NCBI RefSeq assembly: GCF_050320075.1 | Contig: NZ_CP190018.1 | Direction: 5' to 3' (one strand) | Length of the DNA stretch: 64,000 bases | From: Escherichia coli | GTDB lineage: Bacteria > Pseudomonadota > Gammaproteobacteria > Enterobacterales > Enterobacteriaceae | In this document: piece by piece, positions 6,325 through 48,685 of the stretch | How the letters are laid out: the number at the start of each line of letters is the position of its first letter | Numbering within the stretch: the first letter of the stretch is position 1 | Notes under the pieces: generated by a model | What the model was told of the DNA's origin: nothing | Databases searched by the model: none | What the model saw: the letters and a program-made list of their open reading frames with translations, nothing else | Made by a program: the position numbers and the translations under genes

Positions 6325-9248
<2,924 letters not shown>

Positions 9249-13223: not shown

Positions 13224-13543
13224 TAACGGCAATAAACTGTTCACTTCAGTGATATTAAAAAATATGCATCCTCTCCCTTTTTTGTAAGTAATTATTATAT
13301 CCGTGGGAGAGGAATACACGCTGTCCGGCAATCAATCAAACTGCGATAAATCATCGGCCAGTAAAATGGAGATAGCCTCCATTCTCGAAAAATTCATACT
13401 CTCAGCGAAACCATCACTCATCAAGGCGTTTATGGGAGCGTCGCCAATGGCTGCTAACAATGCCAGACTTCCCCGTTGCCGAAATTCCACATACCACAAA
13501 TGGTCACAGGGATTGGGTGTTGAAATGATCCGGATGAGCATGT

Positions 13544-13570
13544 ATCTTTATGGTTATGTTATAACATAAC
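13544..13570 (+). promoter_or_regulatory. Zur box (zinc-uptake-regulator operator) in the ykgM promoter
   Basis: Palindrome GGTTATGTTATAACATAACAGG immediately upstream of the ykgM start; the ykgM-ykgO operon is a known Zur target. Confidence 0.75.
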
Positions 13571-13581
13571 AGGTAAAAATG

Positions 13582-13845
13582 ATGAAGCCCAATATCCATC
13601 CTGAGTATCGTACTGTGGTGTTCCACGACACCAGTGTTGATGAGTACTTTAAAATCGGCTCGACTATCAAAACAGACCGTGAGATTGAGCTGGATGGAGT
13701 AACGTATCCGTACGTGACAATTGATGTCTCTTCTAAATCGCACCCGTTCTATACAGGGAAGCTGAGAACAGTGGCATCAGAAGGAAATGTTGCACGATTC
13801 ACCCAACGTTTTGGTCGTTTTGTTAGCACGAAAAAGGGGGCATGA
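13582..13845 (+). CDS. ykgM: ribosomal protein L31 paralogue (type B, zinc-independent)
   Basis: [27 protein letters not shown]...; 87 aa; lacks the CxxC zinc ribbon. Confidence 0.95.
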
Positions 13846-13985
13846 TGAAAGTCCTTAACTCTCTGCGTACCGCAAAAGAACGCCATCCAGACTGTCAGAT
13901 TGTGAAGCGAAAAGGACGGCTATATGTGATTTGTAAATCTAATCCACGTTTTAAGGCCGTTCAGGGTCGTAAGAAAAAACGTTGA
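13845..13985 (+). CDS. ykgO: ribosomal protein L36 paralogue
   Basis: [46 protein letters not shown], 46 aa; start overlaps the ykgM stop (ATGATGA); not in the ORF track because it is short. Confidence 0.95.
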
Positions 13986-14036
13986 TTCAAAATTCGACGA
14001 ATTAACGATATTTGTCTGATTAATAATCAGACCGGA

Positions 14037-14075
14037 TTAATGTTGGTGTATTTATTACACCAGCATTAATTTTCC
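14037..14075 (+). terminator. rho-independent terminator after ykgM-ykgO
   Basis: Hairpin TTAATGTTGGTGTA / TACACCAGCATTAA followed by a T-run. Confidence 0.6.
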
Positions 14076-14999
14076 TGGGGATGTATCTTCCTGTTCATTT
14101 AAAGTCAACTGCCTGACGTTTCTCTCCGAATATTCCATTATATTAATGTTGACTTGTTGACCAGGTGCGCCCTGTATGCTGGCATCAACTCTCTTTTAGA
14201 CTGAACACGCCACTCAGTTTCCTCCCTTTGCGACGCAGCCTGCATTTACACTCAAACGGTTAAGATGATAAATGTGGTAAATCTGTTGGTACTGACATAA
14301 AAACGTTTACGCCACAGGAACGGCCTGATCCACCGGTAACCCCATCGCCGACGTTCGAGTGCCAGTTAGAGTAACGCGCACAGATGACTGAATGCAGTGC
14401 CCTGGCAAAGAGGCCATCGTTCCTGTGACAACTGGCAGTCTTCGTTTAACTTCACTTAATTTGGCTCTTAGGGGGCTTACCGGACAGATGACGTACTTAC
14501 ACCTGTTTAATTTTTCATCACTTATTGGGATGAACCCCCATAACCATTTTGTGCGGCATGTTAATCCATTAAAACACCTTACTGATTGGCAAATCATCTT
14601 TAATTATGACTCATGATAGTTTTATATTCTATTTCTTATCATTTAAACTTGTTTTTTTACTAGTCCATTACACAACACATTAAGACTATTCCTAACACCT
14701 CAGGGCAAAGTTCCTGGCTAATATAAAATGCAAGTAAGAATTGAACGTTATATTGCCAATAACCTTATGAAACTGAATGTCTTTTTCTTCTTATCAAAAA
14801 AGCAATATTTTCATTTTTTGTAAATATTGACTTAACCATGGAATTCCTTTTCTGTTCACATATTGACACTCATCAGGAAAAAAACATAAATTTAAACCTA
14901 ATCGAAATAATTAAAACTTAATCTCGTTTAACCTATATTGATATGTGCTACGTATCTTATTTACTTCCGATTTACTAAAGAAACTGAATGTACCTGTAA

Positions 15000-32043: not shown

Positions 32044-32270
32044 ATCATCGTTGTTTTTGTTGCAATAGTAGAATACGCGTATTTATTCCTCCATCTCTAT
32101 TAATAACGGCAATAAACTGTTCACTTCACTGATATTTAAAATATGTATCCTTTTCAAGCTGTTCAGCGGCGTAAGAAAAAGTATTAATTATGAATTCGAT
32201 GATTTAACCATATCTGTCTGATTGGTAATCATCCGTGATTAATGCTGGTCTATTGATTACGCCAGAACCC
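32044..32270 (+). repeat. degenerate second copy of the ykgR 3' region joined directly to a ykgO 3' end-like segment
   Basis: 32044-32160 aligns by eye (roughly 80 percent) with 13155-13270, and 32170-32270 with 13951-14065 (encodes ...AVQRRKKKY* versus ykgO ...AVQGRKKKR*); the ykgM/ykgO body is absent between them. Confidence 0.7.
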
Positions 32271-33177
32271 TCTCTAGCTTATTCACCGCCGCCACATACT
32301 TCGCCGGATTTTTATCTTTAAGCACCGCCAGATTGCGTTGCTTCCAGCGAATAGCCGGAAGATGCTGAATTTCAGGATAGCGATACCGCGACCAGTCAGG
32401 GCTGTTTTGCTTAAAACTGAGCAAGAACTCGCGATCCAGATCCGTAAGATGTGACTTCAACGCCTGCGGCAGCAAAGTCGTTACTGACAGAAGCGATTCC
32501 AGCGACGTTTCCTGTTGCGTCATCCCTGAAAATTCCTGCGCGTACAACGTGGCGATCCGCTCTGTATCCCAGTTTGGAGCCAGCAACTCGGCGATGGGGC
32601 GGGGATGGCCTGCCAGATAACAAAGAAAACCGTCAAAGATCTCCCGCATCAGTCCCGGTTTCTCCAGCATATTCAGCACATCAAACAGATCGCGCGGGTG
32701 CTGACGATCAAGCGCAGCGCAGATTTTACCGCCATAAAGATCCGCCAGCGAGACGACACTCATGGTGGTGAAGCCATACTCCATTTCCACACGTTCGCAC
32801 ACAGGCATTTCTGCCGGAGGCAACAACAGCCCGCGCCAGACCGGGCTAACCTCGATCTTAATCTTTGCATCAGCGGTATTCACAATGATGCGCTTTTCAT
32901 CCGCTTTATTTTCCTGCCGAATCGCGGTGATCCCCGGTCTGCCGTTCAGCGATGCAGTAATCCTCTTCAAAGCGTCGTTGATAGCCGCCAAATCAGTATC
33001 GCGATCCGCAAAGCTCTTGTACGCCAGATCAATATCCACCGACAGACGGGGAAAATCCTGCACAAACAAATTGATTGCGGTGCCGCCTTTCAACGCGAAA
33101 CAGGACTCCTTCGCCACATACGGCAGAGCGGCCATCAACAGTTTGACCTGCCGGGCATAGCTATCACGCAGATCCAT
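32257..33177 (-). CDS. AbiEii/AbiGii-family nucleotidyltransferase toxin (type IV TA / abortive infection)
   Basis: 306 aa; NTase motifs (ALKGGTAINLF, DIDL); overlaps the upstream antitoxin gene by 14 nt. Confidence 0.85.
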   Translation of the reverse strand: MDLRDSYARQVKLLMAALPYVAKESCFALKGGTAINLFVQDFPRLSVDIDLAYKSFADRDTDLAAINDALKRITASLNGRPGITAIRQENKADEKRIIVNTADAKIKIEVSPVWRGLLLPPAEMPVCERVEMEYGFTTMSVVSLADLYGGKICAALDRQHPRDLFDVLNMLEKPGLMREIFDGFLCYLAGHPRPIAELLAPNWDTERIATLYAQEFSGMTQQETSLESLLSVTTLLPQALKSHLTDLDREFLLSFKQNSPDWSRYRYPEIQHLPAIRWKQRNLAVLKDKNPAKYVAAVNKLERVLA

Positions 33178-33967
33178 CTTCGACTCCTTCCGGTTTAAAT
33201 GCGCGTGGAACAGTAATTTGATAATCCGGCTCCAGCCAGCCGCCGGGTATGATTTGCCGCTTTCCCGTACCTGTTTCTATACCGCTTTGATCAATATACT
33301 GAAAATAAGGGTGTCCATTACGCCGGGCAAGGTAAAGCATCACCCGGTTGGTTTTAACCGAATGGCTGGCGCGAAGCAGTGCCTGCAATTTGCGTGGGCT
33401 GAGAAGATTCAACCCCTGAAACAGAGCATCGGCATGTTCGAACGAGATTAACGAAGGAACGCCGCAGGCGATCTCATACGCGGCCAGTTCCGGAACACTG
33501 CCTGCTAACTGGCGGTCGCCAATTTTCAGTTCCGTAGTAAATGGCGTTACATCAGCGGTAAGGCCTGACGTATACAGCGTGACAAACGTTGCGGATTGTT
33601 CAAAGGCAGAAAACCATCCCGGCAGTTTGACGTAAGCCGGAAGCGCGAGCCAGACCTGCGGCTTACCCTGTTCGGTATAGTGCGCATGACCCTGAAGCGC
33701 AAGGCTGGTTAGCCCCGCCACCCGAACAGGCTTTTCCCACTGCGATTGCAGGCAGTAAACCGCATCCACCCAATCCGGTTCACGACCCGTCCGGCAGTAT
33801 ACGCCGTGAGCGATCCGCCTGAGCCAGCCATTCTTCACATAGAGATAAGAGAGCTTACGATCTATGCCGTTGCGGGTAAGCCATGACTGGAGCAGCACCT
33901 GGCCGGGTAGCGTGTGCTGCATCAGCCAGTTTAGATAGTTTGGCAACTGTCGCCTCTGAATAGACAT
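33164..33967 (-). CDS. AbiEi-family antitoxin / transcriptional regulator
   Basis: 267 aa, N-terminal winged-helix-like region; immediately upstream of and overlapping AbiEii. Confidence 0.8.
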   Translation of the reverse strand: MSIQRRQLPNYLNWLMQHTLPGQVLLQSWLTRNGIDRKLSYLYVKNGWLRRIAHGVYCRTGREPDWVDAVYCLQSQWEKPVRVAGLTSLALQGHAHYTEQGKPQVWLALPAYVKLPGWFSAFEQSATFVTLYTSGLTADVTPFTTELKIGDRQLAGSVPELAAYEIACGVPSLISFEHADALFQGLNLLSPRKLQALLRASHSVKTNRVMLYLARRNGHPYFQYIDQSGIETGTGKRQIIPGGWLEPDYQITVPRAFKPEGVEDGSA

Positions 33968-34261
33968 TAGTACAAATATTTAAACCAGTGTAGATTCAGG
34001 GATACGCCACAGCAAGAAATAGTTTACTTATTCCTCATTTTGTCGACTAAAAATCGACATTAAACAAAAAATTCAAACTTAATCACTTTCGGGAAAAATG
34101 TGACAAATATATGCTCGGACTGGTTGCGGGGAGCGTGTAACATGGATACAAATCAAAATTATTGCCAGCCTCACTGATGGATTACTGGTGTCAAGAGCCC
34201 CCCTTCGGGCATGAAACGGCTGGCTAATTCTGTACAGACTGTAATCTAAGGACGATAACGC

Positions 34262-37200
34262 ATGACATATCAGGCAATTTTCACTGGCTGGGATGATCTG
34301 ACGATTGAAGACCTTCTGGTCGCTTACCGGAAAGCAAAAGCCGATAGCTTCTTTGAGAATACATTTCCTGTTGCTATCAAATTTGCCGAGTATGAGCAGG
34401 AATTACTTGAAAACCTGCAAAAACTCTTAGATCTTTTGCAGAGCGAAGATGGATTCAGTAGCAATAAGAAGTTGATTGGCAAATTTCGATTGTTACCGAA
34501 AAAATTAACCACAAAGAAAAAACATGAATCCCAAAATGGACACGTCCACTTTTCTAATCCTAAACGAGCAGCCGACCATTTATTTAATAATTTTGATCTG
34601 ATACCAGAGTTTCGTATTATTGGTGACTTCCCGGTTGATAGTCACATTATCTCTGCACTATGGATTAACATGGTCGGGCATAAATTTGATGCCAGCTTAG
34701 ATAACTGTTGCTATGGCGCGCGGCTAAAGCGTATTCGTAATGATGAATTATTTAGCAATGAGCAGGATAATCCATTCCATATCAGTGCCGTGGGTTCTTT
34801 TAGCCCCTACTTCCAGCCCTACCAAAAATGGCGTGGTGATGGCTTAAAAGCTATACGTGACGAGTTGGAAAAAGATCGTGACATTATCGCCGCCTCACTG
34901 GATTTAAAAAGTTACTATCATTTTATTGATCCACTGGCTATAACCTCTGATGATCTCTATAACACACTAAACATAAAACTGACTGAGGATGAAAAAGCGT
35001 TTACTGCACAGTTAGCAGTATTCTTAAAGCACTGGTCTGACGGCGCAGCGGCATTTGGAAAGAAAATAGCGTACAAAACACCTGTTATTAATGGTGGTCT
35101 GGTCATTGGATTAACAGCCAGTCGGATCATTTCAAATATATTGCTACACCATTGGGATAAATTAGTCATTGAAAAACTATCACCAATTCACTACGGTCGT
35201 TATGTCGATGATATGTTCCTTGTAATACGCGATACAGGGACAATTACTAATAATCACGAATTTATGTTATTGCTGCAAGATAGGCTTGGCAATGATTGCG
35301 TTTATTTGAAAAACGAGCAAAAACAAATATGGCAAATACAGCAGGGCGAGCATTTCCAGGGTAAGACCACCATCCAGTTACAATCCGATAAGCAAAAACT
35401 TTTCGTGCTTCAAGGGAGGGCTGGAATAGACCTGCTCGACAGTATCGAAAAGGAGATCTACGAGCTTTCTAGTGAACACCGCTTGATGCCTTCACCGGAT
35501 CAACTGGAACACTCCACCGCAGCTAAAGTCCTTTCCGCTGCCGGTAGTGTAGGTGAAAATGCCGATACTCTGCGCCGTGCGGATGGATTAACCATTCGTC
35601 GTTTGGGCTGGTCACTGCAATTACGCTACGTTGAAACACTGGCACGAGATCTGCCTCCAAGTGAATGGAAAGAACAGCGGGAAGAGTTTTATCAGTTTGC
35701 CTACAACCATATTCTTAGGGCTGATAATCTATTTGCACATTTTAGTTATCTGCCAAGGCTGCTTGGCTTTGCTATCAGTATGAATGAATGGCAGCACGCG
35801 GAAAAAATTGTACTTAAAGCTTACGAATCCATCAACCTGTTGGCATCGGTGATTACTTCAGGTAAGGAAGTGAATATAAATGGTTGCAAAACTCGAGCAG
35901 TAAATGATCTTTGGCGCTGTATAAAAGGCACATTAAGCTGGCTATTTGTTGATGCAGCGACACGATATTACAGTCCTGACAGATTATTTCTTGATAAACG
36001 TTCAAAGAAAGAAGAGTGCCTTGCGGATACATTTTTTAATCATATTTCACAAAGTCTGACGAATCTAAAGGATTTACTGGATCTTCGCTTTGATTCAGCA
36101 GATTTTTATTTAAAAGCGCCATTGGTAGCTCGAGCTGATTTAGCAAAGGAACCTTATAAACAGATCGTAAAGAGTCAGTCGGCAGAAAAACTTGTTAATC
36201 AGCGTGATAGTAAAAAAGAAGTTAAAATACTGAAATTAATGAGCGACTCATCGCTTATTGATATTGACGTTATTAAGCTATTTTTGAAATCAACCAAGAA
36301 TACCCGACTGGAAAAAGTGGCTAAAGGAAATCGTAAGAACGAAAGTTACCTACCTTACATTTTCCCTACACGTCCTTTAACACCCGCTGAAATATCAGAA
36401 CTGGCCCCCGAATGTGTTGGATTACCCTCCACATCCGACAAAAAACCAGATGAGAGACCGTCCACCATTTGGGCAAAATATACTCAAGCATTACGCGGAG
36501 TATGGATCAAACCGACGTTGCTAGCATCGGAGCAGGACTCAGATGAAGCGACAAAAAAAGCTCGGCCTAAGAAATTCATTCATATTGGCACAGACAGGAA
36601 ACATAAAGTTGTCGTTGCGCTAACCAGCATTAAAACAGAGGAGGACGACTGGGCTAAAATGGCCTGCAATAAATCTAACTTGTCCCGTTCAAGGTACCAG
36701 CGGATTTCTGAACTGGTTAATGCAACATTGAAACTATCTCCTAAACCTGATTATGTTTTATTCCCTGAGCTTTCAATCCCGTTACGCTGGGTTAACAGTA
36801 TTGCTGATCGTTTGAGTTCGGCGGGTATCAGTCTAATTGCGGGAACAGAATACCGCCACTTAGACGATAATCAACTGAAGAGTGAGGCCGTACTTGTCCT
36901 TTCAGATAACAGACTCGGCTATCCAGCGAGTGTCAAAATATGGCAACCCAAGCTGGAACCCGCCGTAGGTGAAGATGAGGCATTATTTTCAATTTATGGT
37001 AAGTCTTGGGATTCGACACTTAATGTTAAACAACGTAAGCCGGTATATATTCATCACGGCGTCAATTTTGGCGTTATGATTTGCTCTGAACTCCAGAATA
37101 GTAAAGCGAGGATCCGTTTTCAGGGCGCACTCGATGCATTAATGGTATTGAGCTGGAATAAAGATCTAGATACGTTTGCATCGTTGATTGAATCAGCAGC

Positions 37201-37471
37201 GCTGGATATTCATGCCTATACTATTTTAGTGAATAACCGAAAATACGGCGATAGTCGCGTACGTTCCCCGGCAAAAGAACCCTTTATGCGTGATATTGCT
37301 CGTGTGAAGGGCGGTGATAATGACTTTGTGGTCGCTGCAACGCTGGATATCGACTCGTTAAGGGCATTTCAGAGCAGGGCAAAACGCTGGCCTAAAGGCG
37401 GCGATAAATTCAAACCGTTACCTGAAGGATTCCAGTTGGCAAAGAACCGCAAAAAGCTACCGCCAAAATAA
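34262..37471 (+). CDS. reverse transcriptase fused to a C-terminal nitrilase (carbon-nitrogen hydrolase) domain; DRT type 1 / UG1-like defence RT
   Basis: 1069 aa. RT motif A ASLDLKSYYHFID, motif B GGLVIGLTASRIISNILL, motif C YGRYVDDMFLV (YxDD). C-terminal domain has nitrilase catalytic-triad contexts FPELSIP (Glu) and GVMICSE (Cys). AT-rich relative to flanks. Confidence 0.85.
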   Translation: MTYQAIFTGWDDLTIEDLLVAYRKAKADSFFENTFPVAIKFAEYEQELLENLQKLLDLLQSEDGFSSNKKLIGKFRLLPKKLTTKKKHESQNGHVHFSNPKRAADHLFNNFDLIPEFRIIGDFPVDSHIISALWINMVGHKFDASLDNCCYGARLKRIRNDELFSNEQDNPFHISAVGSFSPYFQPYQKWRGDGLKAIRDELEKDRDIIAASLDLKSYYHFIDPLAITSDDLYNTLNIKLTEDEKAFTAQLAVFLKHWSDGAAAFGKKIAYKTPVINGGLVIGLTASRIISNILLHHWDKLVIEKLSPIHYGRYVDDMFLVIRDTGTITNNHEFMLLLQDRLGNDCVYLKNEQKQIWQIQQGEHFQGKTTIQLQSDKQKLFVLQGRAGIDLLDSIEKEIYELSSEHRLMPSPDQLEHSTAAKVLSAAGSVGENADTLRRADGLTIRRLGWSLQLRYVETLARDLPPSEWKEQREEFYQFAYNHILRADNLFAHFSYLPRLLGFAISMNEWQHAEKIVLKAYESINLLASVITSGKEVNINGCKTRAVNDLWRCIKGTLSWLFVDAATRYYSPDRLFLDKRSKKEECLADTFFNHISQSLTNLKDLLDLRFDSADFYLKAPLVARADLAKEPYKQIVKSQSAEKLVNQRDSKKEVKILKLMSDSSLIDIDVIKLFLKSTKNTRLEKVAKGNRKNESYLPYIFPTRPLTPAEISELAPECVGLPSTSDKKPDERPSTIWAKYTQALRGVWIKPTLLASEQDSDEATKKARPKKFIHIGTDRKHKVVVALTSIKTEEDDWAKMACNKSNLSRSRYQRISELVNATLKLSPKPDYVLFPELSIPLRWVNSIADRLSSAGISLIAGTEYRHLDDNQLKSEAVLVLSDNRLGYPASVKIWQPKLEPAVGEDEALFSIYGKSWDSTLNVKQRKPVYIHHGVNFGVMICSELQNSKARIRFQGALDALMVLSWNKDLDTFASLIESAALDIHAYTILVNNRKYGDSRVRSPAKEPFMRDIARVKGGDNDFVVAATLDIDSLRAFQSRAKRWPKGGDKFKPLPEGFQLAKNRKKLPPK

Positions 37472-37817
37472 GAAACTGATTTTCGCTATTAATAATCAGG
37501 GTATTTTTGCGTGAGATGTTGGTAAACATGATGTAGCCCTTGCCACTCATGACCAATCGCAGTATCTTTCTCCCGCGCCTGCAAAATCAGGCGTCGGGAT
37601 TAGCCTCCTGAAGAAATCTTATCGGCGACACATGACGCGCCAGCGTCTTTTTTTGTGTTGTTCGCACGGTTACATCTCAATGGTGGGCCGGGCGGGGGCG
37701 TCGCAAGACGCGCCAGTGTCCGATAAGGCTGGTAAGGCTAACCCTGCCCGGTTCCACCACCCGCGAGATTAGCCTCTCCGGTGGTGGCTTGAACACCCAC
37801 TTATCGGAGGTTGCCCT

Positions 37818-38410: not shown

Positions 38411-38637
38411 TTCAAGGTACTTTGATAGCAAAGGCAAGCAGGCTGGTTCAGTCCAGTGTTTCTCTTCTTGCATTTTCAGAAATGGGAGGCTGGGAGTCTA
38501 TCGAAATGGTTCGTCGATATGCTCACCTCGCGCCTAATCACCTTACCGAACACGCACGGCAAATAGACTCAGTCCTGAACCCATCGGTCCCAAATTTGTC
38601 CCAGTCAAAAAATAAGGAAGGTACTAATGATGTGTAA
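38410..38637 (+). pseudogene. 3' fragment of a tyrosine-recombinase (phage integrase) gene
   Basis: Encodes ...[35 protein letters not shown]..., the C-terminal catalytic-Tyr region of phage integrases, with no N-terminal domains. Confidence 0.7.
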
Positions 38638-38789
38638 CTTATTGATTTTAATGGTGCGATAAGAGGAATGAATATTGCAAGTTAACGCATTGATTTATAA
38701 TAGATTATTATATTCAAAAAATATAACTATACACATATCTATACACACTGCGCGCATCGCTTGTTTTTCGCACAATTAAAAATAAGAAA

Positions 38790-39080
38790 AAAGTTTTTTT
38801 TCGAAAGAACTGTTCACACTGTTCACCTTTCTGTTTTCTCCTTTTATTTCAGTTTGATAGGTGGTGAATAATGGGTGAATGGTGAACATTCGATTCTTCA
38901 CCTCCGGCATTCTGCCGGTGTGACTCATACCGGTGATTAATCCCCCGTACTGAAATCACACAGGGAGAAAAAAAGTTTTTTTTGATTTGATTGTTCACAC
39001 TGTTCACCTTTCATTTTTCTCTTTTAATTTCAGTGTGATAACGGGTGAATATACGGTGAAGGGTGAACAGTGGATTGTTC
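38790..39080. repeat. P4-type crr (cis replication region): two ~100-bp direct repeats, each with TGTTCACC / GGTGAACA iterons
   Basis: Units at about 38790-38890 and 38973-39075 are near-identical and each contains TGTTCACACTGTTCACC plus inverted GGTGAAYA copies. Confidence 0.8.
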
Positions 39081-39098
39081 ACCTTCGGGGAATTCAGG

Positions 39099-39126
39099 GA
39101 TAAAAAAAGACCGGCAGATGCCGGTC
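39099..39126 (-). terminator. rho-independent terminator downstream of alpha
   Basis: Hairpin GACCGGCA / TGCCGGTC with an adjacent T-run on the minus strand. Confidence 0.55.
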
Positions 39127-39142
39127 AGATGAGTCATGATGG

Positions 39143-41476
39143 TCAGGTTGTTGCAGGGTCGTCACATTTTGGCAGCCAGTCGCCGTAGCTTTCCTCTTTC
39201 AGCGTCAGGTTGGTCTGTATCCCCTGTTTGGTATGGCGCTTCTCGTAATTCAGTCCGTATTCCTTCAGCATCACCGGCAGCCCCAGCCCGAACATTTTCA
39301 GACTGAGTACATTCCGGTAGCCGTTTGCCTCCATGTAGGCCAGATAGGCGTGATAGAGGTATTTACGGTAATTACGCGGGATGATACTGGCGTTCCCCAT
39401 ATACATGCCGCTGGTCTGCGGCAGGGTTTCCAGATAGCCGATAAAATCAAACGTCGGGTCGGCATCCCGTTTGATGTTCAGCGCCTCGTCTGAGTTCTGC
39501 TGGGACTGAAGCAGTGACCGGGCGAGCATCGGGTCGCTGAACTTCTGCATCAGGTGACGCACGATGACCGCCAGCTCGCGGGTGATTTTGTCCTTAAGCT
39601 GCGGGTCGCGCTCCTGCGGGGCTATCTGTTCCGGGAAGTGAATAATCACCCGCCGGCGTGACACGCCGCCGCTGCGGTCGGTGAAGCGCATCGGGTTATT
39701 GTTCACGGCCAGAATTACCGCCGGGATATGCGTGGAGTATGCATCCCGGTATTTCGGGTCAACGGACACCGCATCGCCGCCGGTGATGGCCTTGAGTCCG
39801 GCACCGTCGCCGCTCCATTTTTCCTGGTCCGGCAGGCGTATCAGTGAGAAGCCAGTTAACGCGGCACGTTCACGCGGGGATTCCAGCGTCTCGATGGTGG
39901 CCGACGTGGCGTTATCCTCCCCGGCCAGCAGGGTGGCTATTTCGGCCATGATACTTTTGCCGCTGCCGCCGGGACCGGTCACCTCCAGAAAGAGCTGCCA
40001 GTCGTAGCGGTTTGCCAGCACCATAAACAGTGCGGCCAGAATCACGTCGCGTTTTTCCGCACGGCCACCGGCGGCACGGTCAAGCCAGCGCCAGAACGCG
40101 GGGGCGTGGGTCTCCAGCGTTTCACCGTCCACCGGCGGGGTGAAATCCACATCGCACAGGGTGCGCATCCAGTGTGACGGACTGTGCGGGTGGAACGTGC
40201 CGTTCTGCGTGTCGAGCACGCCGTTACGAAAGCCAATCAGGCGGCGGGAGGGGGCTTCCTGCTGCGGAATAATCAGCTTCAGGGTGTCCACCACGGAGGC
40301 CACCTTCCCGGAGGAGAACGGCGCGCGCAGACGCTGAAACAGCCCGGCCACATCCCGGGCAAAGTCCTGTGGTGGCAGCACCTTCCAGACACCATTTTCA
40401 TAACGGGACAGAAGCTGGCCGTTGGCATCGACCGCGAGCGCCTCGCCGTAATGCTCATAGATACGCATGGCCTTTTCGCTGGTACTCATGGCGGAAAACT
40501 CCGCTTCGCTCATGGTGTCGAACGGGCTTTCAGCCGGTGGCCGGATGGCATCATAAATGGCCTTACGGGTGGCTTCCCCGCCGTACTGCGTGAAGGCATC
40601 ATTCCAGTCACCGAAGACCGGCGGCAGGGCAACAACGCCCTCACACGCATCTGCGGCTGCGGCGGCTTTTTTCTGGCCGTCACCGCTGAGGTCACGGTCT
40701 GCGGCAAGGACAATCTGACAGGCCGGATGCTTCTGCCGGGCAAGGCTGGCCAGAGAAAGGAGGTTCACGGAAGAAAGCGCCACCATCACCGTTTCACCGG
40801 TCAGGTGATGTACGGTAAGTGCGGTCGCGTATCCCTCCGCTATCCACAGACGTTTTCCGGCCTGATTCTGTCCTTCAAGGGTGTGACAGGTGCCCCTGAC
40901 CTGTCCGCCTTTCAGGGTGCGCTTACGGCCGTCAGCACTGATTAACTGAAGGTTAACCAGTTCGCCGCTGTCGTCATACAGTGGCACCACAAGGTCACCG
41001 GCACGCCAGCTCACGCCACCGGCTCTGTGTGTGCCGGTCAGCATCCGGCATTCCCGGCCGGGAAAGCCCTTGCGGGTCAGGTAGGCGTTACCGGTTCCGG
41101 GACGGGTTTTCGCCATCAGGGTTTGTGCCAGTGCGGCGGCGTTCTTCCGGGCAGCGTCTGTTTCAGCACCGGCGGCAGCCGTCACTGCCGGGTCAGCCGG
41201 GGGCAGGCTGCCGGTCACGGCAGCCACCTTTGCTGCCGCGTCGGACGGGGAAACACCAAACACCTTTTCAACCAGTTTCAGGCCGTCACCGGCACCACAC
41301 TGATTGCAGTACCAGGTGCCGCGCCCCTCCCTGTCATCAAAACGGAAGCGGTCACTCCCGCCACAGACCGGACAGGGCTGATGACGGTTTTTCAGCACCT
41401 GAATCCCCAGCGCCGGGAGAATACGCGGCCAGTGGCCGAGCGCATGGCTGACGGTGGCGGTTACGTTCATTTTCAT
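39143..41476 (-). CDS. alpha: P4 alpha-type primase-helicase
   Basis: 777 aa; N-terminal zinc-binding primase motif (CPVCGGSDRFRFDD...WYCNQCGAGDG), central and C-terminal helicase region; iterons on both sides. Confidence 0.9.
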   Translation of the reverse strand: MKMNVTATVSHALGHWPRILPALGIQVLKNRHQPCPVCGGSDRFRFDDREGRGTWYCNQCGAGDGLKLVEKVFGVSPSDAAAKVAAVTGSLPPADPAVTAAAGAETDAARKNAAALAQTLMAKTRPGTGNAYLTRKGFPGRECRMLTGTHRAGGVSWRAGDLVVPLYDDSGELVNLQLISADGRKRTLKGGQVRGTCHTLEGQNQAGKRLWIAEGYATALTVHHLTGETVMVALSSVNLLSLASLARQKHPACQIVLAADRDLSGDGQKKAAAAADACEGVVALPPVFGDWNDAFTQYGGEATRKAIYDAIRPPAESPFDTMSEAEFSAMSTSEKAMRIYEHYGEALAVDANGQLLSRYENGVWKVLPPQDFARDVAGLFQRLRAPFSSGKVASVVDTLKLIIPQQEAPSRRLIGFRNGVLDTQNGTFHPHSPSHWMRTLCDVDFTPPVDGETLETHAPAFWRWLDRAAGGRAEKRDVILAALFMVLANRYDWQLFLEVTGPGGSGKSIMAEIATLLAGEDNATSATIETLESPRERAALTGFSLIRLPDQEKWSGDGAGLKAITGGDAVSVDPKYRDAYSTHIPAVILAVNNNPMRFTDRSGGVSRRRVIIHFPEQIAPQERDPQLKDKITRELAVIVRHLMQKFSDPMLARSLLQSQQNSDEALNIKRDADPTFDFIGYLETLPQTSGMYMGNASIIPRNYRKYLYHAYLAYMEANGYRNVLSLKMFGLGLPVMLKEYGLNYEKRHTKQGIQTNLTLKEESYGDWLPKCDDPATT

Positions 41477-41490
41477 GGTGTTGTTCTCCT

Positions 41491-41811
41491 TCAGTGCAGT
41501 ACCGGCGCTTTTATGTGACGGGCACAGAGTTCATCCATCACAACCAGCCCGAGAAAGGACAGCGACGGCGCGGCCTTCAGGGGGCCGGATTCCATTAAAT
41601 CTTCCAGCAGGGCACAGGCTATCTGACGCCCTTTTTCCTCACCGTGCTGGCGCAGATAAAAGCCTTCCAGCTCAGCGGCGATGGCCGCCTCCAGTGATTC
41701 AAGGGTGAGATGCGGGTAGCGGTGCTGACGTTCGCACACGGTCAGCCAGGCACAGGCGACAGCGCGACGGTAAAGGGCTGCGCGTAAGACGGGCGGTAAG
41801 GGTGTTTTCAT
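41491..41811 (-). CDS. P4-family conserved hypothetical protein (106 aa)
   Basis: ORF directly upstream of alpha in the left operon. Confidence 0.55.
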
Positions 41812-41946
41812 TTGTTTTCCTCCCTGTGACAGATGACTGCATTCCGTGCCGGTTGCATTAACTGATAAGGCATATCTGCGTCTCCTGAAGACGTGCGTAT
41901 CCCTGCGCGAATACGCACATTTAATTTTTCGGGTGTCGTTTTTTAA

Positions 41947-42402
41947 TTACAGATAATTGCGGTAACTGTTATCCGGGGTGATTTCCGGGTCAGGCTCCGT
42001 GCGGGGAATTTCCCGCCATTCCCGCGCCACCGGTGCCGCCCGGCTGGCCGGAACAGTGTCCTGCGGGTAAATATCCAGATATTTCTCCCGCCATTTCTGT
42101 AATTCCGGGTCTCCGGCCATTTCTTTCAGTACCGCATGCCGGTTTACGGGGCTGCGTTTAAACAGGTCAGGACGGTCACAGGTAAATTCCCGCAGAAAAC
42201 GCCCCAGCGGGATGTCTGTGGTGCGCCCGTCAGCGAGGATACGCACAAGGATACTGAATTTACGGCGGTACGGGTTCCAGACAATGTCCGGGCAGCGGTA
42301 CGGCATTTCCCACGGAATACCGTCTTCCAGAATGCCGACCACGGCCACATCGGGAAAACCGGCAGAACGGTAAATCTCACCGGGCTGGGGAAAATCAAAC
42401 AT
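41947..42402 (-). CDS. P4-family conserved hypothetical protein (151 aa; P4 orf151-like position)
   Basis: ORF in the alpha operon; size and position as in P4. Confidence 0.55.
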   Translation of the reverse strand: MFDFPQPGEIYRSAGFPDVAVVGILEDGIPWEMPYRCPDIVWNPYRRKFSILVRILADGRTTDIPLGRFLREFTCDRPDLFKRSPVNRHAVLKEMAGDPELQKWREKYLDIYPQDTVPASRAAPVAREWREIPRTEPDPEITPDNSYRNYL

Positions 42403-42682
42403 GCGTCCTGTCTCCCCGGTCTTTCTGCTGGGCGAGAAAATCGCGGCACAGGCCTTTGGCTTTCAGTTCATTCAGCACAAAATCAATATCTTCATTCAGG
42501 TAGCTGAAAATATGCGGAATGTAGAGCTGATGCAGGCCGGAGAGTTCACGGTGAATCAAATCACCCCCAACAAACCGGGATACGGCGCTGGCGCGGTTGA
42601 GCTTATGGTAAGCCTCAATGCTGAGGTGTTCACGGGCGTCATGACGCGCTGAGACGGTCTGAGGGGCTTTTTTATTACGCAC
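42395..42682 (-). CDS. P4-family small protein with probable GTG start (95 aa; epsilon-like position)
   Basis: GGAGG RBS 6 nt upstream of GTG at 42682; ORF ends overlapping the orf151-like start; the 177-aa ORF in the track is probably an over-extension. Confidence 0.4.
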
Positions 42683-42875
42683 GGGACACCTCCACCACCG
42701 GCAGACGGGCAGCAAGGGAGAGCACATAGTCACGGACAAGGGAACGGCGGGCGCTGCGTTCATCACCGGCGACGGTGCGAAGCATACAGATACGGGGATG
42801 ACGATCTGCGCGACGGACAGCCGCAAACACAAAGACAAATTCAGGGTGTGAGGTGGTAAGGGTTGTAGCCATGAT
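42675..42875 (-). CDS. P4-family small hypothetical protein (66 aa, [26 protein letters not shown]...)
   Basis: Short ORF immediately downstream of the immunity-RNA region; stop overlaps the next start. Confidence 0.4.
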
Positions 42876-42883
42876 GGCAGCCT

Positions 42884-43136
42884 CCTTGAAGTAACAGTTA
42901 CAGCTACCACTGGAGTTCCTACGCTCATGGGTGGTAGCCCGGACGGGGGTAGGAATACCGGCCTTCAAGGAAACCGGCCAGCCCGAAGGCTGCCCCGCCC
43001 GGACCACCATTATCTGACAGAGGCTACGGTTTAAAAACCACAGCCAGAAAAACAGGTGTGCCGAAGCAACGACGTAAAAAAAGACGCATGGCGCGTCATA
43101 TGTCGCCTTGAAGTAACTCGGGTTCCTACGCCCGGC
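42884..43136 (-). ncRNA. P4-type RNA immunity region (CI-RNA-like seqB flanked by complementary seqA / seqC-like repeats)
   Basis: Direct repeats CCTTGAAGTAAC...GTTCCTACGC at 42884-42924 and 43106-43136, and between them (42949-42971) GGTAGGAATACCGGCCTTCAAGG, complementary to both; in the untranslated leader of the left operon. Confidence 0.5.
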
Positions 43137-43225
43137 TGCCGATTTTGCGGCAGCGGAAAAACTATATCCGCAAATGCCGGAAAAAGGCAAGCCAGAAAAA
43201 GGGACTTTTTGCAGAACAGGCATCA

Positions 43226-43492
43226 TCATGCGTCATACCCCCGTTGGCGTCCGGCAATGCGGCCGGCCATCCATGCGGTGACTTCAGAGTGCAGCCAGGC
43301 CACATTTTTACCGCCAAGACTCACCTGCGGCGGAAATTCCCCCTTACGGATGAGTTCATAGATGGTCGAGCGTGACAGGCCGCACAGGTGCATCACTTCC
43401 GGCAGACGTAAAAAACGCTCCTGCGTGATGTCCGGCAGCGGCATCAGTGGCGTCACAGGGGCGGGAGACGGGGAAGAAAAAACAGCTTGCAT
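43226..43492 (-). CDS. alpA: AlpA-family phage regulatory protein (small MerR-like HTH)
   Basis: [50 protein letters not shown] is the AlpA signature; true start may be the internal Met (43444). Confidence 0.85.
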
Positions 43493-43769
43493 CGGGCTAC
43501 CTCGTTAATGTCCATACAGCACCGGATAAGTCCGTCCGGCTTCTGGTAGCGCTTTATTTTGTGAATATTTTCAGCAGACGCAACAGGGGGAATTTGTTCC
43601 GGCAACCTTACAATGGCTGTGTGTTTTTTATCCATCTGGACTGGAAGGGTCTCAAAGGGTTCTGAAGGACCTGGAATTTTTTATAGTGAAATACAAATTG
43701 TTTTTTCTTATTTATTTCAGTGAATTAATAAAAATAAACAGTGATAAACAGCATAAAAAGCCCATCAAC

Positions 43770-43880
43770 GGGTGAACAGTGGTGAACAGACGGTGAACAG
43801 TCATTACTGCGATTGTTCACCCTTTAACTTACTGTATTACTTATCTTTTTTCTTATGGTGAACAGAGGTGAACAGTAAAA
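43770..43880. repeat. P4-type origin of replication: six GGTGAACA / TGTTCACC iterons
   Basis: GGTGAACAGTGGTGAACAGACGGTGAACAG (43771-43800), TGTTCACC (43815-43822), GGTGAACAGAGGTGAACAG (43858-43876), within AT-rich DNA between alpA and sid. Confidence 0.8.
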
Positions 43881-44043
43881 TATAAAAAAACAAACAGTAA
43901 GCCGGTTTTTCCTGCGACCTTTTCCTGGCTTGCCGGTCTGAGGATGAGTCTCCTGTGTCAGGGCTGGCACATCTGCAATGCGTCGTGTTGCTGTCCGGTG
44001 TACGTCACAATTTTCTTAACCTGAAGTGACGAGGAGCCGGAAA

Positions 44044-44778
44044 ATGTCTGACCACACTATCCCTGAATATCTGCAACCCGCACTGGCACAACTGGAAAAG
44101 GCCAGAGCCGCCCATCTTGAGAACGCCCGCCTGATGGATGAGACCGTCACGGCCATTGAACGGGCAGAGCAGGAAAAAAATGCGCTGGCGCAGGCCGACG
44201 GAAACGACGCTGACGACTGGCGCACGGCCTTTCGTGCAGCCGGTGGTGTCCTGAGCGACGAGCTGAAACAGCGCCACATTGAGCGCGTGGCACGCCGGGA
44301 GCTGGTACAGGAATATGACAATCTGGCCGTGGTGCTGAATTTCGAACGTGAACGCCTGAAAGGGGCGTGTGACAGCACGGCCACCGCCTACCGGAAGGCA
44401 CATCATCACCTTCTGAGTCTGTATGCAGAGCATGAGCTGGAACACGCCCTGAATGAAACCTGTGAGGCGCTTGTCCGGGCAATGCATCTGAGCATTCTGG
44501 TACAGGAAAATCCGCTCGCCAACACCACCGGCCATCAGGGCTACGTCGCACCCGATAAGGCTGTCATGCAGCAGGTGAAATCATCGCTGGAACAGAAAAT
44601 TAAACAGATGCAAATCAGCCTCAGCGGCGAGCCGGTTCTCCGGCTGACCGGACTGTCAGCGGCAACACTTCCGCACATGGATTATGAGGTGGCAGGCACA
44701 CCGGCACAGCGCAAGGTGTGGCAGGACAAAATAGACCAGCAGGGAGCAGAGCTTAAGGCCAGAGGACTGCTGTCATGA
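44044..44778 (+). CDS. sid: P4 Sid-type capsid size determination (external scaffold) protein
   Basis: 244 aa from the internal Met (MSDHTIPEYLQPALAQLEKARAAH...), coiled-coil rich; followed by delta and psu. Confidence 0.85.
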   Translation: MSDHTIPEYLQPALAQLEKARAAHLENARLMDETVTAIERAEQEKNALAQADGNDADDWRTAFRAAGGVLSDELKQRHIERVARRELVQEYDNLAVVLNFERERLKGACDSTATAYRKAHHHLLSLYAEHELEHALNETCEALVRAMHLSILVQENPLANTTGHQGYVAPDKAVMQQVKSSLEQKIKQMQISLSGEPVLRLTGLSAATLPHMDYEVAGTPAQRKVWQDKIDQQGAELKARGLLS

Positions 44779-45275
44779 TTTACTGCCCGTCGTGTGGACA
44801 TGTTGCTCACACCCGTCGCGCACATTTCATGGACGATGGCACCAAGATAATGATTGCACAGTGCCGGAATATTTATTGCTCTGCGACATTTGAAGCGAGT
44901 GAAAGCTTTTTCTCTGACAGTAAAGATTCAGGAATGGAATACATTTCAGGCAAACAGAGATACCGCGATTCACTGACGTCAGCCTCCGGCAGTATGAAAC
45001 GCCCGAAAAGAATGCTTGTTACCGGATATTGTTGTCGGAGATGTAAAGGCCTTGCACTGTCAAGAACATCGCGGCGTCTGTCTCAGGAAGTCACCGAGCG
45101 TTTTTATGTGTGCACGGATCGGGGCTGTGGTCTGGTGTTTAAAACGCTTCAGACCATCAACCGTTTCATTGTCCGCCCGGTCACGCCGGACGAACTGGCA
45201 GAACGCCTGCATGAAAAACAGGAACTGCCGCCAGTACGGTTAAAAACACAATCATATTCGCTGCGTCTGGAATGA
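44775..45275 (+). CDS. delta: P4 Delta-type late transcription activator (tandem Ogr-like zinc fingers)
   Basis: 166 aa; two CxxC...CxxC zinc-finger units (MIYCPSCGH...CRNIYC and YCCRRCKG...CTDRGC). Confidence 0.9.
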   Translation: MIYCPSCGHVAHTRRAHFMDDGTKIMIAQCRNIYCSATFEASESFFSDSKDSGMEYISGKQRYRDSLTSASGSMKRPKRMLVTGYCCRRCKGLALSRTSRRLSQEVTERFYVCTDRGCGLVFKTLQTINRFIVRPVTPDELAERLHEKQELPPVRLKTQSYSLRLE

Positions 45276-45348
45276 GGGCTGCCGGTTAACACCGGCCGTC
45301 GCCGCACACCGTATTTTTATTCTTCAGCATGATGAGAAAGAGATAACG

Positions 45349-45921
45349 ATGGAAAGCACAGCCTTACAGCAGGCCTTTGACACCTGTCAGAATAACAAAG
45401 CAGCATGGCTGCAACGCAAAAATGAGCTGGCAGCGGCCGAACAGGAATATCTGCGGCTTCTGTCAGGAGAAGGTAGAAACGTCAGTCGCCTGGACGAATT
45501 ACGCAATATTATCGAAGTCAGAAAATGGCAGGTGAATCAGGCTGCCGGTCGTTATATTCGTTCGCATGAAGCCGTTCAGCACATCAGCATCCGCGACCGG
45601 CTGAATGATTTTATGCAGCAGCACGGCACAGCACTGGCGGCCGCACTGGCACCGGAGCTGATGGGCTACAGTGAGCTGACGGCCATTGCCCGAAACTGTG
45701 CCATACAGCGTGCCACAGATGCCCTGCGTGAAGCCCTTCTGTCCTGGCTTGCGAAGGGGGAAAAAATTAATTATTCCGCACAGGATAGCGACATTTTAAC
45801 GACTATCGGATTCAGGCCTGACGCGGCTTCTGTGGATGACAGCCGTGAAAAATTCACCCCTGCGCAGAACATGATTTTTTCGCGTAAAAGTGCGCAACTG
45901 GCATCACGTCAGTCTGTGTAA
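45349..45921 (+). CDS. psu: P4 Psu-type polarity suppression / capsid decoration protein
   Basis: 190 aa; last gene of the sid-delta-psu operon, followed by cos. Confidence 0.85.
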   Translation: MESTALQQAFDTCQNNKAAWLQRKNELAAAEQEYLRLLSGEGRNVSRLDELRNIIEVRKWQVNQAAGRYIRSHEAVQHISIRDRLNDFMQQHGTALAAALAPELMGYSELTAIARNCAIQRATDALREALLSWLAKGEKINYSAQDSDILTTIGFRPDAASVDDSREKFTPAQNMIFSRKSAQLASRQSV

Positions 45922-46085
45922 AATTCCCCGAAAATCCGCCTGTTTTTACTGAAAAAAGCCATGCATCGATAAGGTGCATGGCTTTGCATGCGTTTTCCTG
46001 CCTCATTTTCTGCAAACCGCACCATTCCCGGCGCGGTCTGAGCGTGTCAGTGCAACTGCATTAAAACCGCCCCGCAAAGCGGGCG

Positions 46086-46104
46086 GGCGAGGCGGGGAAA
46101 GCAC
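46086..46104 (+). other. cos cohesive-end sequence of P2/P4 type
   Basis: GGCGAGGCGGGGAAAGCAC matches the 19-nt P2/P4 cohesive end as I recall it; position just downstream of psu fits P4. Confidence 0.65.
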
Positions 46105-46122
46105 TGCGCGCAACAATGATGA

Positions 46123-47517
46123 TTATGATTTCATTTTATCTGCAATATCTTCTAAGGAATCAAAGAATGCTTTGACAAAGTTGTCTTTATTAACAGTAGT
46201 AAAGTTTTGATTGTAAAATCCTACACATGCAGAAAAAATTGCTCTGCAAGTTAGCTCATTATATTTAGATGAATATAATGGTTCGACTCCACGATACACG
46301 GACCAAGAACCATGAGCTATATCAGACCTAGTCTTATACATTTCCTGAGCCACTCTAGCCCATTTTTTTTCATCTTGATAATAAATAGAAACTAATGAAG
46401 AAACACGACTTACGAAGTTCTTTGTTGTAGATGAATCCTTTTTTTCGCTACTTAGACTAACCAGCCGTTCAAGAGCCGTTGTTAATTTTACTATACGAGA
46501 ACTTTCATCCTTATCCTGTTGTGCGCTACTAAATAAATAGATAGCATCAATTAGCCTGTCTGCAATTACAGAGTTTTCATGAGGTTCTATCGCCAACTCT
46601 ATTAACCGAGAAAGAACTAACCCTAAGTCAGATTTGTAATCATCTTCAAACTTATTCCAAAACTCACCGCTATTGGCTATAGTCCCTTTAGTTGAGTAAT
46701 GATAGTTAAACATTTCGTTTGGTTTCTTGGAAAGATAAAAGCCGTCATAATTTGGGTAAGGATCTGTTGATATACTTAAAAAGTATGGGGAGATATTATA
46801 GTGCACACCAAATAGCTGTAGTATCCCAACCACAAAACATGCAATATTTTTAGCGATTCTCTGCCTACTTAACTTAGAGCGTTTGCTAACAGGGATTTTT
46901 AGGTAGTGTTTATAATGAAATTTATGAGAAGAACAAAATTTCTTAGCTAAATCAAGTTGTTGCTCAGTAAAATCATCACTAATAGTTAAGTGCATTTTTT
47001 CTGCCGATATAATATCAACTCGGCCAATAGACATTATATCTCGTTCCAACCCGTGAGCTAAAATAGGATAATAAAAATCCTCTTCAGACATTTCTCTCCT
47101 TGTTAGTTTTAATGTTTTATTTAGGAGGATAGTACATCCACTCCTGTCGCAACTGCCGTTCTCAACCCAAATATGCATAAACAATATTTTCTTAAGATTA
47201 CTTAAAAATTCATCGGTAGTAACTAGCATTTCTAAGCGATTTGATTTTATAAATCTAGCCGAAATAGCATATAACTTCTCATAAGAGGCATATGATAGAT
47301 GAATTTGAGTTCTAGAAAGATCTGTTCTTCCTTTTATTAGTTCATATGGTGCATCTATGGTCATTCCCAATGAACCAAAATTACCATTATATTCTTTTTT
47401 GTAAAATTCCATAAAATTAGATGAGGATGTTAACTCTTTATTTATTCTAACAGCCTCATCAAGAATAAATTTAAAATCTTTAACGTCTTCCAAACTGGCA
47501 CTCATCATTTTCACCAT
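46123..47517 (-). CDS. uncharacterised 464-aa protein in the P4 psu-int hotspot; C-terminal HEPN-like Rx4H motif; candidate anti-phage effector
   Basis: Strongly AT-rich versus the GC-rich flanking P4 genes; sits between cos/psu and int; C-terminal region contains RSDIAHG (R-x4-H-G, as in HEPN RNases); no Walker or other obvious motif; start overlaps the int 3' end. Confidence 0.7.
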   Translation of the reverse strand: MVKMMSASLEDVKDFKFILDEAVRINKELTSSSNFMEFYKKEYNGNFGSLGMTIDAPYELIKGRTDLSRTQIHLSYASYEKLYAISARFIKSNRLEMLVTTDEFLSNLKKILFMHIWVENGSCDRSGCTILLNKTLKLTRREMSEEDFYYPILAHGLERDIMSIGRVDIISAEKMHLTISDDFTEQQLDLAKKFCSSHKFHYKHYLKIPVSKRSKLSRQRIAKNIACFVVGILQLFGVHYNISPYFLSISTDPYPNYDGFYLSKKPNEMFNYHYSTKGTIANSGEFWNKFEDDYKSDLGLVLSRLIELAIEPHENSVIADRLIDAIYLFSSAQQDKDESSRIVKLTTALERLVSLSSEKKDSSTTKNFVSRVSSLVSIYYQDEKKWARVAQEMYKTRSDIAHGSWSVYRGVEPLYSSKYNELTCRAIFSACVGFYNQNFTTVNKDNFVKAFFDSLEDIADKMKS

Positions 47518-48685
47518 TTAAATTAATAATAAAATCACTATACCACTGCATCATTTTCTTTCGATCTTCTATATACTGTGCATGATTATATACACCACGT
47601 ATCGTGTTTTTATCCACATGAGCCAACTGCATTTCAATCCAAGCAGTATTAAAACCATTTTCATGGAGTATTGTTGATAATGTATGCCTAAATCCATGTC
47701 CTGTAAGTTTTCCCGCATAGCCTATGCGTTTGATAAGTTGATTAACACTTGCCTCACTCATAGGTTTGTTTGGATCATTCCGTCCCGGGAAAACATAACG
47801 ATAATTTCCTGTCATAGATTTAAGTTCATTAAGAAAGCCTAATACCTGGGTCGATAAGGGGACTAGGTGCGGCCTACGCATTTTCATTTTTTCGGCAGGA
47901 ATTTCCCAAATAGCGTTGTCCAGATCAAACTCTTGCCATAATGCCGCTCGCAACTCGATAGTTCTAACCCCAGTAACCATCAATAATTTTGTGGCAATCT
48001 GAACAAGTCGGCTTCCTGCATAACTATCTAAAGCACGCAGAAAATCAGGTATCTCATCTGATTTTAAGAAAGGAAAATGATTTGATTTGTGTACTTCGAG
48101 GGCACTGGACAGATCTGCCGCAGGATTAAACTCTGCTCTTCCGGTAGCAATAGCATATCGAAAAACCTCTGAGCAACGTTGCCGCACTTTGCGCATTTTC
48201 TCCAATGCACCACGTTTCTCAATTTTACGCAGCACATTTAGCAATTCTAGCGGTTTAATTTCCCCTACAGGCCTCGTCCCTACATACGGAAAAATATCAT
48301 TTTGGAACGCCTCAATAATATCTGAGGCATACCCAGCAGACCATTTTGCCGACTTCATCTGATGCCACTCTCTGGCAATCTTTTCGAATGCGTTCTCAGA
48401 TTGAATTCGTAATGCTAATTTTTGTTCTTTTCGAACCTCACTAGGATTTTTTCCCTCGGCCACTATTTTTCTGGCCTCATCACGGCGGGCGCGAGCTTCA
48501 GCAAGTGTGATCGTTGGATAAACACCAAGCGAGATCATTTTAGGTTTACCTGCATAGCGATAACGAAATCGCCAGCTTTTACTTCCATTTGGCTCTACAA
48601 GTAAAGACAACCCTTGCCCATCCCCAAGTGTATAGGCTTTAGCTTCAGGTTTAGCACGGCGAATCTGCATATCATTTAGGGGCAT
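47480..48685 (-). CDS. int: P4-type tyrosine integrase
   Basis: 401 aa; N-terminal arm-binding region (MPLNDMQIRRAKPEAKAYTLGDGQGL), C-terminal catalytic region (HGFRHT...YNHAQY); start faces the tRNA fragment 165 bp away. Confidence 0.95.
   Translation of the reverse strand: MPLNDMQIRRAKPEAKAYTLGDGQGLSLLVEPNGSKSWRFRYRYAGKPKMISLGVYPTITLAEARARRDEARKIVAEGKNPSEVRKEQKLALRIQSENAFEKIAREWHQMKSAKWSAGYASDIIEAFQNDIFPYVGTRPVGEIKPLELLNVLRKIEKRGALEKMRKVRQRCSEVFRYAIATGRAEFNPAADLSSALEVHKSNHFPFLKSDEIPDFLRALDSYAGSRLVQIATKLLMVTGVRTIELRAALWQEFDLDNAIWEIPAEKMKMRRPHLVPLSTQVLGFLNELKSMTGNYRYVFPGRNDPNKPMSEASVNQLIKRIGYAGKLTGHGFRHTLSTILHENGFNTAWIEMQLAHVDKNTIRGVYNHAQYIEDRKKMMQWYSDFIINLNGENDECQFGRR

Follow-up and report, generated by a model that had tools for sequence, protein, structure and literature searches.

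An AbiE-family toxin-antitoxin gene pair beside an RT-nitrilase gene in the Escherichia coli chromosome

The gene pair and its family

A 64 kb stretch of Escherichia coli chromosome, referred to here as the window and 99.9-100% identical to the corresponding sequence of strain YZLc1-3, contains an intact, ordinary and already annotated representative of the very abundant AbiE family of toxin-antitoxin systems. An earlier note on this DNA had described two overlapping genes on the minus strand, and the list of open reading frames (ORFs) gives exactly the same extent for them, 32257-33967. The downstream gene, abiEii (32257-33177, minus strand), encodes a 306 amino acid (aa) nucleotidyltransferase toxin of the DUF1814/COG2253 type (WP_000365809.1, named by RefSeq as nucleotidyl transferase AbiEii/AbiGii toxin family protein). 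The other, abiEi (33164-33946, minus strand), starts with a TTG codon and encodes a 260 aa antitoxin and putative autorepressor, consisting of a winged helix-turn-helix (HTH) and a C-terminal domain (WP_001550661.1, type IV toxin-antitoxin system AbiEi family antitoxin domain-containing protein). The two genes form a bicistronic unit on one strand, with the antitoxin gene directly before the toxin gene, as in nine other loci, and their ORFs share 14 nucleotides (nt) at 33164-33177. Reading the junction (33164-33189, minus strand) from the sequence reveals an AAGGAG Shine-Dalgarno (SD) motif at 33184-33189, within the 3' end of abiEi and 6 nt ahead of the toxin ATG (33175-33177), with the antitoxin stop codon TGA at 33164-33166. 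The position of this SD inside abiEi, together with the overlap, implies that the two genes are translationally coupled. The same overlapping layout is found in Pectobacterium, Buttiauxella, Photorhabdus, Trabulsiella and other loci.

The earlier note had given the antitoxin a length of 267 aa, which is the product of the longest abiEi ORF, extending to an ATG at 33967 (33164-33967, minus strand). RefSeq and all close homologues instead place the start at the TTG at 33946, seven codons after this ATG. Across genera this TTG does not vary, an AGAGG lies ahead of it at 33953-33957, and in the predicted structure of the 267 aa version residues 1-10 are modelled with low confidence. The abiEi product thus appears more likely to be 260 aa than 267 aa in length.

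Profile comparisons place both proteins firmly within the AbiE families. The toxin scores 122.6 bits against Pfam AbiEii PF08843 (E = 3.2e-35, cut-off 22.5 bits) and matches the PADLOC AbiEii model PDLC02290 over its full length (E = 4.4e-116). The antitoxin scores 123.4 bits against AbiEi_3 (E = 8e-36) and 101.2 bits against AbiEi_3_N (E = 3.2e-29), both with cut-offs of 26 bits, and matches the PADLOC AbiEi model end to end (E = 5e-80). Of the two families against which the earlier note had proposed checking the pair, AbiEii is thereby confirmed, but AbiEi_4 is not, the antitoxin's score of 18.9 bits falling below the cut-off of 25. NCBIfam holds no model for either protein.

The catalytic motifs of the toxin were compared across an alignment of 47 diverse family members (34-91% identity), taken from a family of 4424 clusters at 50% identity in a representative library. 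Dy et al. (2014; PMC3985639) defined four motifs in such toxins, namely hG[GS]-x15-DhD with an Arg, K...R and +DxxD, mutations in which abolish toxicity. All four are found here: motifs I and II as K30-G31-G32, exactly 15 residues and D48-I-D50, with the family-specific R44; motif III as K151 and R158; and motif IV as R162-D163-L-F-D166, the motif residues being invariant or at least 90% conserved in the alignment. Residues 27-38 read F-A-L-K-G-G-T-A-I-N-L-F, of which G31, G32, T33, A34 and N36 are invariant; the GGTAINLF string quoted in the earlier note occupies residues 31-38. Also invariant is Ser46, within R44-L-S46-V-D48-I-D50. It lies two residues ahead of the first Asp of motif II, which is the position of the Ser/Thr phosphoacceptor in type VII systems. 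The equivalent S46 of Serratia AbiE-T2 is equated with the phosphorylated S78 of MenT3 in PMC7725324, and the R-x-[S/T]-x-D-x-D spacing suggests that Ser46 of the E. coli toxin is the counterpart of T65 in Streptococcus agalactiae AbiEii.

Searches of the PDB with the single proteins and with family profiles found no significant AbiE or MenT match; one marginal match, to JHP933 (E = 0.04), had the motifs in the correct register. Comparison of folds was therefore needed. The predicted toxin structure matches those of MenT4, MenT3, JHP933 and MenT1, which have the DUF1814 pol-beta nucleotidyltransferase fold, and the predicted antitoxin matches Rv2827c and S. agalactiae AbiEi, having an N-terminal winged HTH and a C-terminal domain. 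Both genes are under purifying selection, with ratios of non-synonymous to synonymous substitution rates (dN/dS) of 0.07-0.16 relative to four orthologues.

The upstream regulatory region

The 250 nt upstream of abiEi were aligned between eight orthologous loci from six genera, and inverted repeats that may constitute an AbiEi operator are both present in this promoter region and conserved. The first of these, site B (33948-33966, no strand), is a TGTC-N11-GACA palindrome that overlies the AGAGG SD, stops 2 nt short of the TTG and is considered a candidate AbiEi operator. Its core is invariant in all eight loci and six genera, while synonymous sites are saturated (dS 0.8 to >2), and loci L006, L007, L012, L013, L014 and L015 have an exact TGTC-N11-GACA at the same distance, 2 nt, ahead of the start codon. 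A TGTCGA-N7-TCGACA palindrome, site A (34041-34059, no strand), lies 93 bp further upstream as a candidate second operator, and can be recognised in six of the eight aligned loci. The exact pair of TGTC-N11-GACA sequences with an identical 93 bp spacing is found only in the E. coli window, Pectobacterium (L006) and Trabulsiella (L014). Across the 64 kb, sites A and B are the only exact occurrences of the pattern, against 0.7 expected. As the pattern was itself derived from this region, it is the conservation between genera that provides the real evidence for the palindromes. Two features from an initial repeat scan, a 22 nt imperfect inverted repeat (I1, 33956-33999) and a 38 nt direct repeat (D1), were discarded, both being better explained by the TGTC-N11-GACA sites.

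Between the two sites lies a promoter-like element (33987-34015, minus strand), composed of a -35 hexamer TTGCTG (34010-34015), a 17 nt spacer and a -10 hexamer TACACT (33987-33992). The pattern TTGnnn-N17-(T/C)AnAnT keeps its position in seven of the eight aligned loci, with TAAAAT, CATAAT, TATATT and TACAGT as variants of the -10 hexamer, and this positional conservation between genera points to a putative abiEi promoter. A scan with sigma-70 and terminator consensus patterns detected neither a minus strand promoter ahead of abiEi nor a terminator immediately behind abiEii. Autoregulation through inverted repeats has been demonstrated for S. agalactiae AbiEi (PMC3985639) and M. tuberculosis Rv2827c, and the arrangement of two palindromes around a candidate promoter would fit with similar autoregulation by the E. 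coli AbiEi, were it to bind them.

Function of the pair and its genomic setting

The gene structure, the family membership evident from profiles, motifs and folds, the purifying selection, the conserved palindromes and the independence from the neighbouring reverse transcriptase (RT)-nitrilase gene described below were all established by direct analysis. The pair very probably represents a functional two-gene toxin-antitoxin or abortive infection module of the AbiE family. The tRNA target, operator binding, mode of neutralisation and defence phenotype that we infer for it would combine as follows. The two genes would be cotranscribed from a weak promoter approximately 35 nt upstream of abiEi, and their translation coupled through the 14 nt overlap. 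AbiEii, as a nucleotidyltransferase of the pol-beta fold, would most likely add nucleotides to the 3'-CCA of tRNA, by analogy with the MenT toxins and S. agalactiae AbiEii, which extend these ends (bioRxiv 10.64898/2026.01.19.700257); such additions would block aminoacylation and translation, causing a reversible arrest of growth. AbiEi would most likely repress the operon at the two TGTC-N11-GACA palindromes, one of which covers the ribosome-binding site. Neutralisation of the toxin may proceed by auto-phosphorylation of Ser46, as in type VII systems, or by a non-phosphorylating route of the MenA4-MenT4 type; antitoxin-induced auto-phosphorylation neutralises S. agalactiae AbiE and MenAT1/3, but not MenT4 (bioRxiv 10.64898/2026.01.19.700257). 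The module is self-contained, and probably serves both phage defence and retention of its island. Purifying selection on both genes is consistent with a toxin that arrests growth and a cognate antitoxin that neutralises it.

Several observations weigh against parts of this reconstruction. The promoter-like hexamers are weak, with 7 of 12 positions matching, and were missed by the consensus scan, while site A is missing from two of the eight orthologous loci. Scans for inverted repeats in the distant Photorhabdus and Providencia loci found nothing comparable, implying that the operator motif is specific to a clade. No experiment on precisely this pair from E. coli was found in the literature searched. 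In E. coli, 32 coliphages were unaffected by the AbiE of S. agalactiae, and hence a defence phenotype is not to be assumed. Furthermore, MenA4 and MenT4, the closest structural relatives, are reported to show neither interaction nor phosphorylation, so that neutralisation may take either route.

Among 5426 complete genomes of E. coli, 832 carry the pair, and homologous pairs occur across the Enterobacterales and beyond. In the window, it is flanked on one side by a pao-MFS-hydrolase-LysR-ykgR(fragment) block and on the other by P4-type remnants, comprising ash, a hypothetical gene, an HTH fragment and an integrase fragment; this integrase-fragment end of the island is at 38435-38638 and 38650-39140. 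In other strains the remnants end at tRNA-Thr, directly after the integrase fragment, and an integrase pseudogene flanks abiEii in sequence type 131 (ST131) and TB06052. The decayed island is P4-like (CP4-6-type), and the pair occupies its integrase-proximal end. ARAGORN detected no tRNA in the 64 kb, so the attachment site could not be placed.

This setting lends some weight to the alternative that the main selected role of the pair is addiction, whereby loss of the carrier island or plasmid frees a stable toxin that arrests the cell, a real possibility although not the probable answer. S. agalactiae AbiE, besides giving no protection against the coliphages mentioned above, was able to stabilise an otherwise unstable plasmid (PMC3985639), and an AbiE reportedly helps to stabilise an integrative and conjugative element in S. 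suis (PMC11062541). Homologues are also common on plasmids, being found on 321 plasmid records, many of which are rhizobial or Ralstonia megaplasmids, and the pair is the constant element beside the integrase remnants while the adjacent cargo varies. However, the island is already decayed and immobile, with only fragments of integrase, yet both genes remain under purifying selection, and in Photorhabdus the pair stands alone between housekeeping genes. Nor does addiction exclude defence, as Lactococcus lactis AbiE and the DUF1814 pairs SanaTA and RlegTA affect phages. By contrast with this alternative, it is highly improbable that the pair is an inactive relic of the decayed island, its toxin-antitoxin function lost. 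The surroundings do include pseudogenes (the ykgR, HTH and integrase fragments), and truncated toxin variants exist in the database, such as clusters of 175 aa and 234 aa with 88-99% identity, but both ORFs in the window are full length, every catalytic residue is intact, the low dN/dS indicates continuing constraint, and the SD sequences, overlap and upstream palindromes are conserved across genera. This explanation was accordingly rejected.

Only one copy of the pair itself is recorded as belonging to a plasmid, in 'plasmid unnamed3' of E. coli MS 69-1 (locus L004, NZ_CP146678.1). This is a 64 kb non-mobilizable record, for which PLSDB typing lists no replicon and which contains the same pao-MFS-LysR-AbiE-RT block as the chromosome; it looks more like a chromosomal fragment or excised island than a true plasmid. 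In Serratia liquefaciens, an orphan AbiEi_3 antitoxin gene with 48% identity (locus L008, 6001-6774) lies beside mutS, with no called gene matching the AbiEii Pfam family within 6 kb on either side and a convergent short-chain dehydrogenase fragment downstream. A second, divergent AbiEi_3/AbiEii pair is found in E. coli (locus L011, 6001-7684), its antitoxin being 46% identical and belonging to a cluster of 502 sequences. This pair adjoins BREX genes (PglZ and BrxL) and a PLD-like gene, and is preceded by an 11 nt inverted repeat with a 24 nt spacing that is reminiscent of the S. agalactiae operator. An AbiE pair beside the kps capsule genes of CFT073, whether one of these two pairs or another, is reported to affect phage susceptibility (PMC12488582).

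The gene on the other side of the upstream region, at 34262-37471 on the plus strand, encodes the 1069 aa RT-nitrilase that the earlier note had placed next to the pair, and matches the PADLOC RT_UG5-nitrilase model over its full length (E = 0). No Pfam match was found for it at E ≤ 0.01, either to RVT or to CN_hydrolase, and all its NCBIfam matches were below threshold. The gene is present in 260 E. coli genomes and is nearly clonal, with at least 99% identity. A junction between abiEi and the RT gene is found in 258 genomes, whereas abiEi adjoins hsdR in 549, including ST131. In these latter loci the AbiE pair is 94.9% identical to that of the window, the type I hsdRMS genes occupy the same slot, and the same 'ash' and hypothetical genes lie downstream. 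A third cargo in the slot consists of a DUF4747 gene and a gene for a 165 aa hypothetical protein. Neither protein has a PADLOC match, and they are possible uncharacterised defence candidates. Depending on the cargo, the slot extends over approximately 34170-37800 of the window, 8974-14940 of locus L003 and 8720-10218 of locus L012.

Pairwise alignment of the window with ST131 places the upstream boundary of the AbiE module at 34170-34180 (no strand), beyond which the sequence is specific to the cargo, RT-nitrilase in the former and hsdR in the latter. Homology between the two contexts runs through abiEi and approximately 210 nt upstream before stopping at this point, genomes with the hsd cargo matching the window only up to approximately 34170. 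This implies that the AbiE promoter region is part of the AbiE module, and that each cargo has its own leader. Elsewhere, the neighbours of the pair are a Dcm-type methylase and HNH genes in Pectobacterium and CTD7/MC3/LmuB_C genes in Buttiauxella, while the pair is alone between housekeeping genes in Photorhabdus and others; gene calling over the 5-6 kb of flanking sequence retrieved gave no RT in any of the six other genera sampled. No consistent co-occurrence is therefore observed between AbiE (832 genomes) and the RT-nitrilase (260). The INDEPENDENCE of the AbiE pair from the RT-nitrilase is supported because of the junction counts, the swapped cargos and these neighbours in other genera, and, as the earlier note had suggested of two independent defence modules, the pair and the RT-nitrilase are separate modules sharing a slot in which cargo is swapped. 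Although AbiEi, AbiEii and the RT-nitrilase are adjacent and divergent across a shared 294 nt intergenic region, and are inherited together in 258 E. coli genomes, the least credible explanation of all is that they form a single three-gene defence system, with AbiEi regulating the RT or the toxin acting as its effector; this was rejected on the junction counts, the cargo swaps and a conservation boundary approximately 85 nt before the RT start codon, and a stand-alone DRT model in PADLOC also covers the RT over its whole length. It is conceivable, if unlikely, that AbiE serves the exchange slot as a constant addiction module or anchor, retaining it in the genome while providing a homology arm for the exchange of cassettes; the operator, with its fixed 93 bp spacing, might then act by DNA looping, and neutralisation might follow the MenA4-type route.

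An apparently intact P4-like satellite (39143-48685) follows the island remnants, and beyond it lie genes whose annotations are tail-fibre fragment, acyltransferase and phage head-binding protein. The presence of this satellite and of the phage-annotated genes where tRNA-Thr would be expected suggests that elements integrated in tandem at a single attachment site. The interval from psu to the satellite's integrase, a known defence hotspot of P4, contains a gene of 464 aa (46123-47517, minus strand) that RefSeq describes as 'HEPN domain-containing' and that has no Pfam or PADLOC match at E ≤ 0.001; this gene is a candidate for an uncharacterised defence function carried by the satellite. Hochhauser et al. 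found AbiEii at three E. coli integration hotspots (PMC10121019), and AbiE is not mentioned by Rousset et al. (2022) in their work on P4 hotspots.

AbiE ranks with the most abundant of the defence and toxin-antitoxin families, and the interest of this pair beyond its correct annotation is small. Modest by-products of the analysis are the corrected start codon of abiEi and the assignment of its product to the AbiEi_3 subfamily, along with a testable proposal for the operator and promoter of an enterobacterial clade and the separation of AbiE from the RT-nitrilase at the level of the population.

Comparison with known AbiE systems

The AbiE-2 system of Serratia sp. ATCC 39006 (AbiE-A2/AbiE-T2) resembles the E. 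coli pair in combining an AbiEi_3 antitoxin with an AbiEii toxin containing the conserved Ser46 (PMC7725324), but differs from it in genomic context. That paper describes a 10^6-fold killing of E. coli by the toxin, rescued only by its own antitoxin, and a perturbation of tRNA levels upon induction; a keyword search of it turned up no phage defence phenotype. The toxin in the window is approximately 54-56% identical to homologues from the genus Serratia, the ATCC 39006 pair having been compared by description rather than by alignment. The M. tuberculosis MenA4-MenT4 system (Rv2827c-Rv2826c) is much more distant in sequence, with only 13-16% identity, and neither partner was detected in the sequence and profile searches of the PDB. 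The two antitoxins fall into different Pfam families. MenT4 is reportedly neither phosphorylated nor bound by MenA4, whereas a serine at the phosphoacceptor position is invariant in the family of the E. coli pair.

In the S. agalactiae pair AbiEi-AbiEii (SAG1284-SAG1285), the antitoxin is a COG5340/DUF4095 protein and not a member of AbiEi_3, and its operator consists of two 23 bp repeats 3 bp apart over the -35 element, in contrast to the two 19 bp palindromes that lie 93 bp apart and flank a promoter-like site in E. coli. This system has been reclassified as type VII on the basis of UTP-specific auto-phosphorylation at T65 in a 2026 preprint (bioRxiv 10.64898/2026.01.19.700257). Phage resistance among these relatives is mixed, the AbiE of L. 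lactis being protective and that of S. agalactiae having no effect on the 32 coliphages. The L. lactis system, encoded by pNP40, is the founding two-gene abortive infection system and likewise includes an AbiEii nucleotidyltransferase, but it differs from the E. coli pair in being carried by a plasmid, in having a Gram-positive host and in its demonstrated phenotype against phages of the 936 family.

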